Origin: Candidatus Krumholzibacteriia bacterium
GTDB lineage: Bacteria; Krumholzibacteriota; Krumholzibacteriia; Krumholzibacteriales; Krumholzibacteriaceae
Direction: 5' to 3'
Assembly (NCBI GenBank): GCA_963836185.1
Contig: CAWIIQ010000003.1
Span: 160,001-224,000, forward strand
Length of the DNA stretch: 64,000 bases
Shown here one piece after another: positions 1,441 to 10,024 of the stretch. Position numbers and translations under genes: made by a program. Position 1 is the stretch's first letter; each line of letters starts with the position of its first letter. The notes beneath the pieces are model-generated. The model was not told where the DNA came from. It saw only the letters and a program-made list of their open reading frames with translations, and did not search any database.

Positions 1441-2353
1441 TCAGCCGATTTCGATCATTCGTTCTATGGCGGTTCTGGCGGCGTCGGCCGTCTTCTTCGG
1501 AACCGTGACTACGGGGCCGAGGTTTTCGAGGGAAGCCAGGATCTTCTCCAGCGAGATCTTTTTCATGTTCGGGCATATCGCGTTGGGCGACGCGGGGATG
1601 AATCTCTTTTCAGGGTAGAGTTTCTCGAGGCGGTAGCACATCCCGACCTCGGTTCCCACGATGAAGGTGGTCGCGTCGCTCTCTCCGGCGAATTTTATCA
1701 TCGACCCCGTTCCAAGAGCGATGTCAGCTTCGGCCTCGATTTCAGGATTGACCTCTGGATGAACCATGACGACCGCGTCGGGATGCTGCTCTCTGAGTGC
1801 CCGTATCTCTTCGGGCATGATCTTCTGGTGTGACGGGCAGAACCCGTTCCACAGGATCATGCCGCGGTCGGTCTGCAGCGATACCCACCCGCCCGAGATA
1901 CTGGTCGGGCCCGAAAATGATCTTGTCATCCTCCGGGATGGAATCGATTACGGCGAGGGCATTGGCCGAGGTGCAGCAGATGTCGGTCAGCGCCTTGACC
2001 TCGGCGGTCGAGTTGACATACATCACCGTCACGGCGCCGGGGTGCTTCTCCTGGAGCGCGCGCAGCTGTGCGGCGTCGATCATGTCGGCCATCGGGCAGC
2101 CCGCGTCCGGGTCGGGAAGGATGACCTTCTTGTCCGGGGAGAGGATGGCCGCGGTCTCGGCCATGAAGTGGACGCCGCAGAAGATTATGATCTCCTCTTC
2201 CAGCCTGGCGGCAAGACGGCTGAGGTCCAGCGAGTCGCCAAGGTGGTCGGCGACGTCCTGGATCTCGGGCGGCTGATAGTTATGAGCGAGGATTACCGCG
2301 CCCGTCTCTTCCTTCAGCCGGAGGATCTTCTCTACGAGTTCTTTTGCCGGCAT
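1441..2353 (-). CDS. nadA: Quinolinate synthase NadA (frameshift near 1893)
   Basis: [26 protein letters not shown] and CCTSAN in ORF 1742..2353; GFCPSH, HPE, GTEVG and CPNMKK in ORF 1441..1929. Confidence 0.93.
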
Positions 2354-2372
2354 GGCCTGATAAGCTCCCCGC

Positions 2373-2963
2373 TCAGTCCTTTTTTTCTTCGTCGCCGAGG
2401 GTGCAGCCGCAGTGCGGACACTCAGCCAGTGAGTTCGATACGACCTTGCCGCACTCAGGGCAGTCCTTAAGCTCGGTCTTGCAGGAGTTGCAGAAAGTGT
2501 ATGTCTCCTCGACTTCAGAATCGCAGTAGGGACAGGTCTGCCCGTGCATCTCGCTTTTCTGCGCGTGAGGTGTCGGAGCGGGCTCGCCCGTTTCCTTCCT
2601 CTTGCGATAATCCTCGATCGCGGCGTGCAGCGCGTCGGCCCCGAGGTTGGAACAGTGCATCTTGTTCTTGGGAAGCCCGCCGAGCTCTTCGGCGACCATG
2701 TCGTTTGTGATCTCCATCGCCTCGTCGAGTGTCTTCCCCGTCGCCATCTCGCTGACCATGCTCGAGACCGCGATAGCGGCCCCGCAGCCGAAGGTCTTGA
2801 ACTTGATATCGGCGAGCCTGTCGTCCTCGACCGTGATCATGAATGTCATCATGTCGCCGCAGGTCGGGTTCCCGATCTCTCCCACGCCGTCCGCGTTCTC
2901 GATCTCGCCGACATTGCGCGGCTTCATGAAATGGTCCATCACCTTGTCGCTGTACATTGGCAT
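2373..2963 (-). CDS. iscU: Fe-S scaffold IscU/NifU with C-terminal double zinc ribbon
   Basis: [34 protein letters not shown]; tail has CPYC/CNSC/CPEC/CPHC. Confidence 0.93.
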
Positions 2964-2993
2964 TGTTCTTCTCCTGTCAGTTATTGTCCTCTT

Positions 2994-4172
2994 TCAGTCC
3001 TGGTCCTTGTTATATATGGGGGACATCTCGCGCAGGCGCAAGACGATCGGCTTCATCTCTTCTATTACCGTGTCGACGTCCTCGATCGTGTTCGAATCGC
3101 CGAGCGAGAATACTATCGAGCCCTGTGCAGTAGCGGCGTCGTAGCCCATCGCCTCGAGGACGTGGCTGCCCTTGAGCGCCTTCGATGTGCAGGCGGAGCC
3201 GCTTGCGGCCATGATCCCGTTGTGGTCGAGGAAGAGCAGAAGGCCCTCGCCCTCGATGAATTTGACACAGAACGATGCGTGTCCGGGAAGGCGCTGTTCG
3301 GGGTGCCCAGTCGCTATCACATCGGGGATCGCAGCGGGCAGCTTCTCGATGAACGCGTCCCTTATAGGGATAAATCGCGCCGCCCTGTCGGCCAGCTCGG
3401 CCAGTGCGAGTTCGGCCGCGACTCCCATGCCGGCGATCGCCGGTATGTTCTCCTGGCCCGCCCTGAGGTTCCTCTCCTGGACGCCGCCCTGGATCAGCGG
3501 CCTCACGGGGAATCCCTTCCCGAGGATCAGCGCCGCGGCTCCCGGGGGGCCGCCGAAATTCTGCGCCGCTATCGTCATCGCGCCGGCGCCTGTCCTGTTC
3601 ATGTCCGTGTCGATCATGCCCGCGGCTCCCCACGAATCTGTGTGGAGCGGCACGCCTGCCTCCCTGCATATGGCGGCGAGCTCCGTGACGGGCTGGACCG
3701 TGCCGACCTCCGTGCTCGCGTGGATTATCGAGACGACGGCCGCTCCGCCCGCGAGAGCTTTTTTCAGGCCGGAGGGGTCTACGAGGCCAACGCTGTCGAC
3801 CGGCAGGGTCACGATCTCGAACCCTTCCTTCTCCAGCGTTCTGGCCGGCGTCATTATCGAGATATGCTCCATGGCGGAGATTATCACGCGTTTCGACTTG
3901 TTCGCGCGGCCTCTCGCTATGCCCTTGAGGGCCATGTTGTTCGCCTCTGAGCCGGACGCGGTGAATATCACGTCGTATGCGGACATTCCCGCGAGAGACG
4001 CGACCTGCTCCCTCGCTCGCGCGAGGACCTCGGCGGCCCGCTGGCCGCGAGTGGTCACGCTCTGGGGATTGCCGAACCCGTCCTCGAGAAGGGGCACCAT
4101 CGCCGCGACGGCCTCTTTCCTGACGGGTGAAGCGGCAACGTGGTCGAGGTATATCTCTTTTTGTTCGTTCAT
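2994..4172 (-). CDS. iscS: IscS/NifS-family cysteine desulfurase homolog with PLP lysine replaced
   Basis: YLDH, FTASGSEANN and SGSACTS (catalytic Cys loop) present. The canonical HK..GP motif reads AAQNFGGPPG. Start set at MNEQKEIYLD. Confidence 0.88.
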   Translation of the reverse strand: MNEQKEIYLDHVAASPVRKEAVAAMVPLLEDGFGNPQSVTTRGQRAAEVLARAREQVASLAGMSAYDVIFTASGSEANNMALKGIARGRANKSKRVIISAMEHISIMTPARTLEKEGFEIVTLPVDSVGLVDPSGLKKALAGGAAVVSIIHASTEVGTVQPVTELAAICREAGVPLHTDSWGAAGMIDTDMNRTGAGAMTIAAQNFGGPPGAAALILGKGFPVRPLIQGGVQERNLRAGQENIPAIAGMGVAAELALAELADRAARFIPIRDAFIEKLPAAIPDVIATGHPEQRLPGHASFCVKFIEGEGLLLFLDHNGIMAASGSACTSKALKGSHVLEAMGYDAATAQGSIVFSLGDSNTIEDVDTVIEEMKPIVLRLREMSPIYNKDQD

Positions 4173-4460
4173 CAGGTTCCGTCCTGTCTTTTTGCGGCCG
4201 GACCGGAGGCACGTCCGCTGACTTCGGAGACACCCCTTCCGATCGATACGGCGTATTACATATTCGAGATCGGTAATAAGTAGAAATAATTTACTGCGAG
4301 CCCCCCATAAAGAAAAGTAAAATGACACTGACTGTCAACAATATACGCTTCCTGACGAGAGCCAGCCCCTTCACTTTATCGTATTTATTGCTATATTGTA
4401 TATGTTCGCACAAATTGTTCGCCCGAACTCTGTTTGCTGGCCACATTTCAGGGGGGTGTC

Positions 4461-5594
4461 ATGAAACGCACGGGAATGCCCTGTATGGGTACGCTTGCCC
4501 CTGCAGCATTTTTGATCACAACGATATTTCTTGTTACCTCGGCGATCCTGACGGATGCCGCTTCCGCCGGGGACAGGCGCGCCCCTGTCTCAGGAGGCAG
4601 AAAAGAAGGCGGTATTCAGAAGACGCCTGACCGGCCGAAACCACCGCCCCCGGCGTATAAGCCCGCACCTGCCCGTAAGCCCGATCGCCCGGTGAAACCG
4701 GCACCTGGCAGAAATGACCCCCCCGGTGAAGTGACAGGCGGGAGAAAGACGCCATCGGGCGGTTCGTACAGCAGGCCGCCGAGAAAATTCGAAAAATATC
4801 CGGACCGTTATAAAGAGAAACGAAAGGAAAAAGGTCCTGTTGGAAGGAAAGGAAAAGAAGACTGCAGGCCTCCAGCCCGTCCGGGCGGCGGGCCCTGCTG
4901 GCGGCCCCCCGGGCACCGCCCCCCTCACCGGCCTCCCATACCCTGCCATCCCCCCGTCTATATCAGCTACGAGTACACGTATGTCGACCAGACGATCATA
5001 ATCGGCGGGCTGATCGACAATGACCTCTACGGGATAATCCTGCCGTTCGGCCCGATCGTTCCCTGGGAGATAGGCGAGTTTTACCTTATCAGGCTCAAGA
5101 ATCTCGAAAGGGAAGGTCTCGGCGGCTCGATGATGACCACTATCGTGCAGACGCGCGATGAGATGGGATGGGAAGAGTTCCTCGACAGGTTCGGGGACGA
5201 TATCACGGACGTGATCTATTACGGCCCGGTCGGACGCACATCATTTCTTGTAGCCATGACCGTTTCCGATATCCTCGACCTGATGGTGCTCGAAGGGATC
5301 AGGTGGGTCGGGGAGCTGTACCCCGAATACAAGATAAAGCCCGGGGGAAGGAACGCGAGATTCTACGTGCGCTCTCTCGAAGGGGACACGATCGCGTTCC
5401 GCAGGGAGCTGCGGGACACGGGCGTCTTCGTCATGAACTTCGATCCCGATACCGGGGAATACTTTGTCCGTAGCAGCAGCGACAATTACGACATGATAGC
5501 GAAGCTCTGGTGGGTCGCCAGGATCTCCGGCGCTCGCGGAGAGCCGTTCTTCCAGCCGGAATACGAGTGGGTCGATGTCGGGTTGGCGCCGTAA
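4461..5594 (+). CDS. Secreted hypothetical protein with Pro/Lys-rich low-complexity N-region
   Basis: ATG after GGGGGG, signal-like hydrophobic stretch, Pro-rich linker, then a globular C-terminal region. Confidence 0.65.
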   Translation: MKRTGMPCMGTLAPAAFLITTIFLVTSAILTDAASAGDRRAPVSGGRKEGGIQKTPDRPKPPPPAYKPAPARKPDRPVKPAPGRNDPPGEVTGGRKTPSGGSYSRPPRKFEKYPDRYKEKRKEKGPVGRKGKEDCRPPARPGGGPCWRPPGHRPPHRPPIPCHPPVYISYEYTYVDQTIIIGGLIDNDLYGIILPFGPIVPWEIGEFYLIRLKNLEREGLGGSMMTTIVQTRDEMGWEEFLDRFGDDITDVIYYGPVGRTSFLVAMTVSDILDLMVLEGIRWVGELYPEYKIKPGGRNARFYVRSLEGDTIAFRRELRDTGVFVMNFDPDTGEYFVRSSSDNYDMIAKLWWVARISGARGEPFFQPEYEWVDVGLAP

Positions 5595-7895: not shown

Positions 7896-8954
7896 ATGAA
7901 TCTTTCGAGAAAGCTGGGCCTGTCGGTCGTGACCTTCGCTGTGATGGCGACTGTGCTGGCATCGATGGCCGTGGCGGGCCAGAAAGATCCGCCGAAGCTG
8001 TACATACGGGACAAGGAACCCGACCTCGGCACTTTCTATGAAGGCGTGGACATCGAGTATGAGTTCAAGGTGAGGAACCACGGGGTTGCGGAACTTCATA
8101 TTCTCGGCGTCCGCCCCGGGTGAGGCTGCTCAGTGGCCGACTATGACGAGGTCATCCCTCCCGGGTCGGAGGGAAAGATTGGTGTAAAACTCATAGGACA
8201 CAAGCTTCACACGGGGCGCTTCAAGAAAAGCTTCACGGTGAAGACTAACGATCCTGAAAATGCGAAGCTGACGCTGTCCGTTACCGGAATTGTCAAGCAG
8301 GTCTTCCAGGTCTCGAAGGGGATGTCCCTCTCGGGGTACAAGGGCGATGAGCTCAAGGAGGAAGTGATCCTCACATCTACTGTCGAGGAGAAGATCAACC
8401 TGACTGGATATCACTGGTCGGATGCCAGCAAGGATAAAGAGGCTCTCGAGGAGGGCATCGGCGTCAAGATAACGCCGATCGAAAAGGGCAAGAAGTACAA
8501 GATCGATACATGGCTGAAGAAAGACCTTCCGCCGAAACAGTACTATGCCGACCTGTATATAGAAACGGATTTTGAGATGCTTCCCGAGAAGAAGCTGCAG
8601 TTCCGGCTTCATATCATGGACGATGTCGAGGTTCACCCGAGCACGATATACATGAGAGAGCTCCAGGTAGAAGAGGGAACATCGAAGAGTTTCGAGAAGA
8701 TTGTCTCGATCATCGCGGCAAGGGGAGACTCTCTGAAGGTACTGGAGGTAGTGCCGAGCGATCCGACAATCACCTGGAACATCAGGGAGGTCAAGCCCGG
8801 CAAGGCCTACACATGCAGGTTCCAGATCCGGCCGAAATCGGAGCCGGGCAAGTACGAAGCGACGCTGAAATTCCTGACCAACTATCCCGGATACAATGAG
8901 CTTGTGGTGCCGATCAAGGGCTCCGTCAGGATAGTGAAGAAGCGGGGCGGCTGA
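7896..8954 (+). CDS. DUF1573-like (Ig-fold) secreted protein, probable selenoprotein with in-frame TGA at 8121-8123
   Basis: ORFs 7896..8123 and 8133..8954 are in the same frame. The junction reads VRPG-TGA-GCSVADYDEVIPPG, matching the DUF1573 'VxxsCGCt...IpPG' motif with TGA at the first Cys. Confidence 0.8.
8137..8173 (+). promoter_or_regulatory. Candidate bacterial SECIS element
   Basis: ATGAC-GAG-GTCAT hairpin (8143-8155) with a G-initiated loop 24 nt after the UGA; can extend by CCGAC/GTCGG pairing. Confidence 0.5.
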
Positions 8955-9038
8955 TAGCGGTCCCGGCGCATTACAGAGGGGATTATCCGGGGCGTGTCCG
9001 GCGTTCGGCGCGTCCCGATTTTTGAAAGGGCAGATATC

Positions 9039-9966
9039 ATGACAAGAAGTATAAGGATATTTATGCTGGCGATGGCGGTGGTCGCCATGCTCGCCGGAGC
9101 GGCGTCAGCCGATGCCGCCAGGGAGAACGAGGCGAAGGACGCTTTCATCAAGTTAATGGGCGAACTCCAGCAGGACCGGAACCGGATCCCGATGGATCAG
9201 CTTCTCGTAAAGGCCGAAGAGGAGATCAAGAAGTTCATCGAGACTTACGCCGGCACTGCCGCGTCGGGAAGCGCGATGGTCACTCTCAGCCAGATATATT
9301 CGCAGACCGGACGGAACGCGGACGCCAGGGAGTTCCTTGACAAGTATATCGCGGCGACATTTCCGAAAGAGCCGTCGGAAGAAGGAATGGCATGGATGAC
9401 GATTGCCGGTGCCTGCATAGACGACGACGATTTCGAAGGAGCCAGGAAAGCGCTGGACAAGGCAGTCGCGGTCAAGGGGCTCGATGACAAGATGAAGAAG
9501 TCGGCCGAGGACATGCTCGCACGTCTCGAGACGATGAAGAAACTCAAGATCGGCGCCGACGCGCTGGACTTCAAGACGACAGATATCGCGGGCAAGGAGA
9601 TCAGCCTCTCCGACTACAGGGGGAAAGTGGTCCTCCTCGATTTCTGGGCCACGTGGTGCGCCCCATGCCGGGCGGAGATGCCGCATCGTCAAGGAAGTAT
9701 ACGCGGCCTATAACGGCAAGGGCTTCGACATCCTCGGCGTTTCGATGGACAACAACCGGCAGGCTCTGGATTCCTACCTCGAGGAACAGGGCATGAAGTG
9801 GCGCCAGATCTACGACGGCAAGGGCTGGAAGGCGGAGATCGGCGAGCTCTATGCGGTCAGTTCGATTCCCGCTACGTTCCTCATCGACAAGCAGGGAAAG
9901 ATAAGGTACAAGAATCTGCGCGGCGATGAGCTGAAGGCGGCGGTCGAGGCGCTGGTAAAGGAATAA
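9039..9966 (+). CDS. TlpA/ResA-family thiol-disulfide oxidoreductase with N-terminal TPR-like domain (frameshift near 9687)
   Basis: Signal peptide; [17 protein letters not shown]; continues in a shifted frame as [21 protein letters not shown]...[12 protein letters not shown]. Confidence 0.88.
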
Positions 9967-9984: not shown

Positions 9985-10024
9985 CTGACCATTCGACGGG
10001 CGGGCCATCCGGTCCGCCCGTTTT
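9985..10024 (+). terminator. Intrinsic terminator
   Basis: GACGGGCGGGCC-ATCC-GGTCCGCCCG-TTTT. Confidence 0.75.

Follow-up and report, generated by a model that had tools for sequence, protein, structure and literature searches.

A split DUF1573-family selenoprotein gene of Krumholzibacteriota and its conserved association with a TlpA-like redoxin

Gene callers end a protein at an in-frame TGA, and a selenoprotein gene can thereby be cut in two. In the window analysed here, a stretch of 64,000 nucleotides from a Candidatus Krumholzibacteriia genome, two consecutive open reading frames (ORFs) are parted by a TGA codon, and a sequence-only reading had proposed that they form one exported selenoprotein, linked functionally to the redoxin encoded next to it. 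Is this TGA a stop or a selenocysteine (Sec) codon and, if Sec is inserted, what could such a protein do?

A conserved in-frame TGA codon

The two ORFs, 7896–8123 (75 aa) and 8133–8954 (273 aa), lie in a common frame, as that reading had it. With the TGA at 8121–8123 translated as Sec, they yield a 352-aa protein (7896–8954, + strand) that contains the sequence VRPG-U-GCSVADYD and terminates with TGA-TAG (8952–8957). This coding sequence is of the DUF1573/OS_HP2 type, with three tandem ASH/PapD-like Ig domains, and is conserved over its full length in relatives. The Pfam domain DUF1573 (PF07610) matches residues 39–133 with 66.5 bits (cut-off 26.1), bridging the TGA codon, which aligns with the first Cys of the DUF1573 C-G-C motif, the very position suspected from the sequence; a HYDIN/VesB Ig model covers residues 33–128 of the read-through protein.

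The read-through protein, used as a query, has a match in 54 of 61 genomes. In all 30 loci that were fetched, counting the window, TGA is located exactly at residue 76, and two of these first 30 loci also carry tandem Cys paralogues. With 40 loci added, 81 hits were reduced to 67 distinct genes, 48 with TGA and 19 with TGC or TGT at this site; 20 more loci, picked afterwards from other families, contributed 12 TGA and 11 Cys genes, which brings the TGA at the U-G-C position to 60 distinct Krumholzibacteriota genes. The proposed check, alternation of TGA with TGC/TGT among homologues and conservation on both sides of the codon, thus came out positive. A profile search detected the three-domain protein in 136 of the 151 genomes of the phylum (in none of the nine from family f8), and all 57 rows of the alignment have C/U and C at the two positions of the motif. 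Contigs of relatives, one of them from an RNA library, span the TGA codon; this comparison, which covers 40 of the 228 difference rows, is not counted as evidence, nor are RNA-library contigs taken as proof of transcription.

Public gene calls include only the 273-aa downstream fragment, and its named close hits are assigned to Candidatus Krumholzibacteria, so the earlier point that gene callers split this gene was right. Annotation repair is warranted across the order, where a conserved gene is filed as a fragment that lacks the signal peptide and the active site. A search for a sigma-70 promoter upstream of the selenoprotein gene returned none. On a quick tree, five changes between Sec and Cys are needed; the long branches of this tree leave the direction of change unsure, and no origin is claimed. 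Tandem Sec and Cys paralogues, with up to three copies, occur in two separate lineages (loci L039, L040, L044–L046, L060, L061, L063, L097 and L098) and possibly provide a backup under selenium limitation.

A Sec-specific hairpin downstream of the TGA

The sequence-only reading had placed the SECIS element in the hairpin ATGAC-GAG-GTCAT at 8143–8155 (+20 to +32 from the UGA). The hairpin exists but is not conserved: it is fully paired in 19 of the 60 TGA genes (18 of 48 and 1 of 12), with frequent T-T and C-A mismatches, and is absent from the minimum free energy fold. What is conserved is the adjacent hairpin CCCTCC-CGGGTC-GGAGGG at 8156–8173 (+ strand), which extends from +33 to +50 after the UGA and carries GG at +40/+41. 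Among TGA genes, which are related and hence do not count as independent, it is fully paired (6/6) in 56 of 60 (45 of 48 and 11 of 12), compared with none of the 19 Cys genes of the first set, 1 of 11 in the second, and 1 of 12 among the close Cys paralogues. The +35/+48 pair is C-G in 29 of the 48 TGA genes and T-A in 17, a compensatory exchange in which Pro/Leu replacement on one side goes with a synonymous Glu change on the other; a quick 63-row tree requires seven switches between C-G and T-A, and well-supported branches force at least three of them. At +36, a third codon position, T is present in 59 of 60 TGA genes versus 2 of the 12 close Cys paralogues; the loop GG at +40/+41 is retained in 59 of 60. 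Given that the element overlaps the conserved I-P-P-G-x-E-G codons, protein constraint contributes to its conservation.

The consensus bacterial SECIS, as given in the accessible part of PMC13188914, has an apical loop of 3–9 nt, a stem of 4–16 bp, a G in the first two loop positions and a distance of 16–37 nt from the UGA to the loop. The hairpin at 8156–8173 conforms in shape (6-bp stem, loop CGGGTC, G within the first two loop positions) and exceeds the spacing by one, at 38 nt. Judged by sequence comparison, it is a conserved, covarying, Sec-specific hairpin that replaces 8143–8155 as the SECIS candidate. A possible second helix (8133–8155, + strand), formed by +10 to +15 with +27 to +32, overlaps and competes with the 8143–8155 hairpin; it is complete (6/6) in 51 of 60 TGA genes versus 2 of the 12 close Cys paralogues, with no two-sided change in this helix seen among the 60 TGA genes. 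Folding z-scores for the whole region range from −0.2 to −1.4 and are not significant.

Selenocysteine machinery and the reading of the codon

All four components of the Sec pathway, whose presence had been named as a check, were found in the host genome. SelA scores 502.6 bits, selD carries its own in-frame TGA (SCSG-U-ASK), and tRNA-Sec(TCA) is present; selB is in pieces, with several frameshifts (G000:C1:47922–49803), and is intact in all five relatives tested. The host assembly, 92.5% complete, is indel-rich, with frameshifts in both selB and tlpA. A selA match in all 60 genomes indicates that the Cys-only lineages do not lack the machinery, so that the use of Sec or Cys is a trait of the subfamily. 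The hairpin of selD bears no close resemblance to that at 8156–8173. A genome-wide scan for selenoproteins by codon bias was discarded because it missed both selD and the DUF1573 gene.

To the reading of the TGA as a genuine stop or as an error of sequencing, leaving two small genes or a pseudogene, we assign almost no probability. Indel errors in selB and tlpA lend it some credence, as does the fact that TGA is the commonest stop of this genome (308 of 638 long genes), and the raw reads of the source sample were not found (best share 0.09). Against it, the same codon recurs in 60 genes from independent assemblies, cuts a single Ig domain in mid-fold with conserved sequence on either side, and is accompanied by a hairpin that tracks TGA as opposed to TGY. 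The conserved TGA, the Cys paralogues and the selA/B/C/D set together support the proposed read-through, and the TGA at 8121–8123 is almost certainly translated as Sec.

A family already in the catalogues

The novelty implied for this selenoprotein did not hold, because published catalogues and NCBIfam already include DUF1573/OS_HP2 selenoproteins with U-G-C. In the accessible text of these sources, OS_HP2 appears among the new selenoprotein families (PMC1976440, Table 2) and is tied to pfam07610 and a UxC motif (PMC2398784), and a 'DUF1573 domain-containing' selenoprotein with PF07610 and UGC is catalogued (PMC9312934, PMC13188914). The family has thus been on record since 2007–2008, and the window protein is a member by the literature definition, with Sec incorporation itself predicted from sequence: it shares PF07610, Sec as the first residue of U-G-C, Cys homologues, a downstream stem-loop and the lack of an assigned function. 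The accessible parts of the catalogues differ from the present account in giving neither the three-domain architecture nor the TlpA/DsbD or rhodanese/MauE context, the fusions described below or the distribution in Krumholzibacteriota. What is added here is therefore context, not a new selenoprotein family.

Against the NCBIfam model NF041425 (OS_HP2_seleno), the window protein, with C substituted for U, scores 87.2 bits, below the cut-off of 100, and accordingly is not filed under this model and goes unnamed by it; one of 13 homologues tested from the phylum reaches the cut-off (range 44.9–100.3). We found no function and no such neighbourhoods for the DUF1573/PF07610 family in the openly accessible literature, and our literature search returned no paper that combines Krumholzibacteriota with selenocysteine.

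Domain architecture and predicted fold

The N-terminus (7896–7976, + strand) is a predicted Sec-type signal peptide, judged by eye from its basic n-region, hydrophobic h-region and AVA cleavage site, and similar N-termini are present in homologues. Ig domain 1 (7995–8300, + strand) is DUF1573/HYDIN-VesB-like and bears the U-G-C, whereas domains 2 and 3 (8301–8936, + strand) contain no conserved Cys. The AlphaFold2 model of the mature chain (pLDDT 95.4, pTM 0.77) consists of three all-beta domains, in agreement with the earlier suggestion of an Ig-fold protein of about 352 aa. In this model, U76-G77-C78 (TGA-GGC-TGC, 8121–8129, + strand) is predicted by DSSP to form a four-residue turn that joins two beta-strands (40–47 and 52–56) of Ig domain 1.

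The best structural matches of the model are tandem ASH/PapD-like Ig repeats of ciliary proteins, HYDIN (2e6j), the Ig domains of VesB/VesC and Porphyromonas gingivalis 2qsv, all with the same per-domain fold (Z 10.6–11.5, rmsd 2.0–2.4 Å over about 100 residues); model residues 109–317, in domains 2 and 3, match 2qsv with Z 10.9. The aligning domain of 2qsv, unlike the window protein, has no CxC. A sequence-profile search of the PDB also retrieved 2qsv (E 1.8e-4), a single-sequence search gave only spurious L21 hits, and no solved structure with the CxC site surfaced in these PDB searches. The shared Ig fold reveals no function; domains 2 and 3 may serve as a client-binding or spacer platform.

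The TlpA-like gene and the flanking hairpins

As the sequence-only reading described, the next gene (9039–9966, + strand) encodes a predicted exported redoxin with a WCAPC motif (9654–9668; CxxC at 9657–9668). The gene is split by one extra base near 9687, a break that this earlier reading did not mention, and would encode a TPR and TlpA/ResA-like redoxin protein of about 308 aa. The extra base is missing from a relative's contig, and an intact ORF of about 303–354 aa is present in 28 of the 29 tlpA loci of relatives (none was reported for L035); with selB frameshifted in the same genome, the tlpA frameshift is probably an assembly indel. An intact orthologue matches Pfam AhpC-TSA with 86.3 bits and Redoxin with 84.2 bits. 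The protein has a redoxin domain with WCxxC and a signal peptide predicted by eye, and shares with TlpA, ResA and CcmG redoxins the WCAPC, the 'MP' after this motif and a later 'IP' motif; it differs from them in its N-terminal TPR region and in scores below the NCBIfam equivalog cut-offs (ResA, 109 of 170; TlpA, 76 of 230), so it is called only TlpA-like here.

The terminator that was thought to follow tlpA is a 12-bp GC-rich hairpin (9995–10022, + strand), a probable terminator with a U-tract so short that the terminator scan passed it over. That scan did identify a terminator-like hairpin between the selenoprotein gene and tlpA (8988–9017, + strand), followed by TTTTT and the ribosome-binding site of tlpA. 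By eye, similar and apparently covarying hairpins occupy this position in most same-order relatives. The hairpin may act in leaky termination, in stabilisation or in the control of translation, and given its location, co-transcription of the two genes may be partial.

Gene neighbourhoods and fusions

The tlpA gene lies immediately 3' of the TGA gene in all 30 loci first fetched, counting the window, and was detected 3' of it in 11 of 12 later loci from families f6 and f9, that is, in 41 of 42 TGA loci overall. The Sec genes with no adjacent TlpA are two second copies (L058, L059), a divergent copy (L048) and genes at contig ends. The dsbD gene is found three genes further on in all three f6 loci and gives a strong match in five of the 12 later loci; in the host genome, dsbD is unlinked. 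Among 150 representatives listed from a whole-library search, at least 23 are fusions of 765–907 aa in which a CxC three-Ig module precedes a TlpA-like domain and additional Ig domains; being similar in length, they may constitute one lineage. The synteny and the fusions support the functional link to TlpA that had been proposed, with servicing of the U-x-C site by TlpA a putative step. Nine of the 23 fused redoxin domains have CxxC, 10 have a single Cys and four lack the first Cys, so electron transfer is not obligatory there. Also among the listed representatives, CxC is missing in 61 of 63 giant Ig-repeat proteins and present in 76 of 85 shorter hits.

The Cys-only relatives have a different neighbourhood: rhodanese and MauE genes follow them in all eight later loci and in three earlier ones. 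In the host genome, a rhodanese-MauE pair is present but unlinked, with mauE about 62 kb from the selenoprotein gene. This pair, located just past the window (L086:878–1953, contig C3 of G000), consists of a membrane-anchored rhodanese-like gene and a MauE with DCGCGFG, and is not preceded by the DUF1573 gene that stands before such a pair in other families. The search for DsbC_N, Thioredoxin_4 and DsbB gave no match in the host genome, an indel-rich and incomplete assembly. A preprint (bioRxiv 10.64898/2026.03.05.709764) indicates, in its accessible part, that MauE replaces DsbB by means of a C-G-C motif and that two tested MauE proteins function with E. coli's own Dsb partners. The likeness to the family studied here is that of a periplasm-facing C-G-C redox motif, in addition to the adjacency of MauE to the Cys-only homologues; MauE itself is a four-helix membrane protein, and the accessible part of the preprint does not mention DUF1573 as its partner. 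From sequence, both neighbourhoods, TlpA/DsbD and rhodanese/MauE, point to disulfide handling in the envelope.

Other neighbours were seen beside some additional copies. The second Sec copy of genome G018 (L059:19–5604), like that of G010 (L058), lies 3' of a gene for an Acr3-like transporter and, in G018, ends an arsenic-type operon with ArsP, thioredoxin, DsbD_2 and LMWPc. In G059, the divergent Sec copy without TlpA (L048) has glutaredoxin and GroES genes upstream and a hairpin that is apparently shifted by one codon; a Cys copy accompanied by rhodanese/MauE (L104) is present in the same genome.

A possible disulfide isomerase and its alternatives

Periplasmic isomerases of the DsbC/DsbG type are fed by DsbD. 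By analogy, the favoured reading of the window protein is a periplasmic disulfide isomerase or reductase that would be re-reduced by TlpA and DsbD, a mechanism that, taken as a whole, is plausible but falls a little short of an even chance. SelB would bind the hairpin at +33 to +50, allowing Sec insertion at the UGA; the 352-residue selenoprotein would be exported and would present U-G-C on a turn that the model predicts to be exposed. The selenolate would attack disulfides of clients, at cysteines that are mis-paired or oxidised, with Cys78 resolving the intermediate into a strained selenenylsulfide, which the CxxC of TlpA, itself fed by DsbD, would reduce; Ig domains 2 and 3 and the TPR region of TlpA would act as docking surfaces. 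The case for this mechanism draws on the fixed order with tlpA, the dsbD near some loci, the fusions, the contrast in CxC between shorter and giant Ig proteins and the host's lack of DsbC_N, Thioredoxin_4 and DsbB matches, and a Cys-Gly-Cys peptide mimics PDI, with E0' of −0.167 V, according to the accessible part of another preprint (bioRxiv 10.64898/2026.01.27.701630). The likeness to DsbC/DsbG would be confined to the role, namely export, reduction by DsbD and rearrangement of client disulfides. Those enzymes have a thioredoxin fold, CxxC and a dimerisation domain, whereas the window protein is modelled as all-beta Ig, has no CxxC and no such Pfam match, and would catalyse through the U-x-C on a turn of an Ig domain, a TPR-TlpA being the separate intermediate. 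Several observations count against the mechanism: MauE neighbours point to oxidation, the Sec copies at L058 and L059 have no adjacent TlpA and one of them ends an arsenic-type operon, a conserved terminator-like hairpin parts the gene pair, most fused redoxins are without CxxC, and the absence of Dsb genes was recorded in an incomplete, indel-rich assembly. A broader proposal, that the three-Ig (U/C)-x-C protein is the near-universal core of an undescribed envelope system for oxidative folding, an Ig-fold isomerase replacing DsbC/DsbA in Krumholzibacteriota and wired to TPR-TlpA/DsbD in its Sec form and to rhodanese/MauE in its Cys form, is speculative and on balance unlikely. If true, the orphan DUF1573/OS_HP2 family would gain a function and the MauE pathway a missing partner. 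Pairing and fusion with TlpA, along with the rhodanese/MauE alternative, provide a testable hypothesis, an Ig-fold disulfide isomerase, for a family listed since 2007, and the natural Cys paralogues make it easier to assay.

The MauE neighbours allow the opposite assignment, in which the U-G-C or C-G-C turn works as a DsbA-like disulfide carrier: MauE would oxidise it, exported proteins would receive its disulfides, and TlpA would be a proof-reading reductant or serve other clients. The rhodanese and MauE genes behind Cys-only homologues (8 of 8 loci), the host's own rhodanese-MauE pair in a genome with no DsbA/DsbB-type match and the oxidising potential of CGC (bioRxiv 10.64898/2026.01.27.701630, accessible part) agree with it. 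We nevertheless consider such a carrier improbable: the fixed neighbour of the Sec subfamily is TlpA, often with dsbD nearby, and not MauE, the host mauE is about 62 kb away, and the two MauE tested use E. coli's own Dsb partners (bioRxiv 10.64898/2026.03.05.709764, accessible part). The same U-G-C, a soft-donor site on a turn that is exposed in the model, could instead bind Cu(I), Hg or As(III) in the periplasm as a metal or metalloid chaperone or sink held reduced by TlpA. Characterised selenoenzymes are mostly reductive, which also tells against the oxidative carrier, and TlpA is known to keep copper chaperones reduced. A metal-binding role would fit the paralogue that ends an operon of ArsP, thioredoxin, DsbD_2, ArsC-like LMWPc and an Acr3-like SBF transporter, and one homologue (P0255) has a weak, below-cut-off PCuAC match (E 3.5e-6). 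It appears slightly less probable still, given that the invariant columns include no other conserved His, Met or Cys ligand, that the conserved genes around the main copy include neither a metal transporter nor an oxidase, and that a protein found almost throughout the phylum (136 of 151 genomes) is more readily seen as a housekeeping than as a resistance factor.

A non-catalytic role, as an envelope scaffold or adhesin of ASH/Ig repeats in which U-G-C either forms a bond, structural or cross-linking, or serves as a redox switch that TlpA sets, would account for the match to HYDIN/CEP192-type ASH repeats and surface Ig modules and for the many occurrences of the module in giant proteins. Those giant repeat proteins, though, are the ones without CxC (61 of 63), and retention of a UGA and a SECIS across several families would seem costly for a structural bond, which makes this role rather remote. 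We rate as very unlikely that the protein is a maturation factor for the downstream AsrAB-like/molybdopterin/group-4 hydrogenase-Mrp-type membrane complex: the operon does lie behind tlpA in 19 of the 30 loci, and also in the majority of the long same-order ones, but a hairpin separates the two, other genes replace the operon in f6 and in several f1 and f3 loci while the pair stays intact, and the Fe-S subunits of the operon have, by eye, no export signal.

Other genes in the window

The operon that extends from 10240 to about 21000 (+ strand) encodes AsrA/sulfhydrogenase-beta-like, AsrB/gamma-like and molybdopterin-oxidoreductase-like proteins, a ferredoxin, NuoH/B/C/D-like proteins and Mrp/Mbh subunits, apparently a group-4 hydrogenase-like complex that is conserved in most same-order relatives. 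The molybdopterin-oxidoreductase-like protein has one CxxCxxxC and no further N-terminal Cys cluster, and the NuoH-like gene is frameshifted here. Divergently oriented from the selenoprotein gene, and syntenic with it in many relatives, are iscS/nifS, a nifU with a double zinc-ribbon tail and a frameshifted nadA (1742–4328, − strand). Between these genes and the selenoprotein gene, at 4434–5594 (+ strand), lies an ORF for a 386-aa proline-rich protein with no Pfam match, which is also found upstream in a few relatives.
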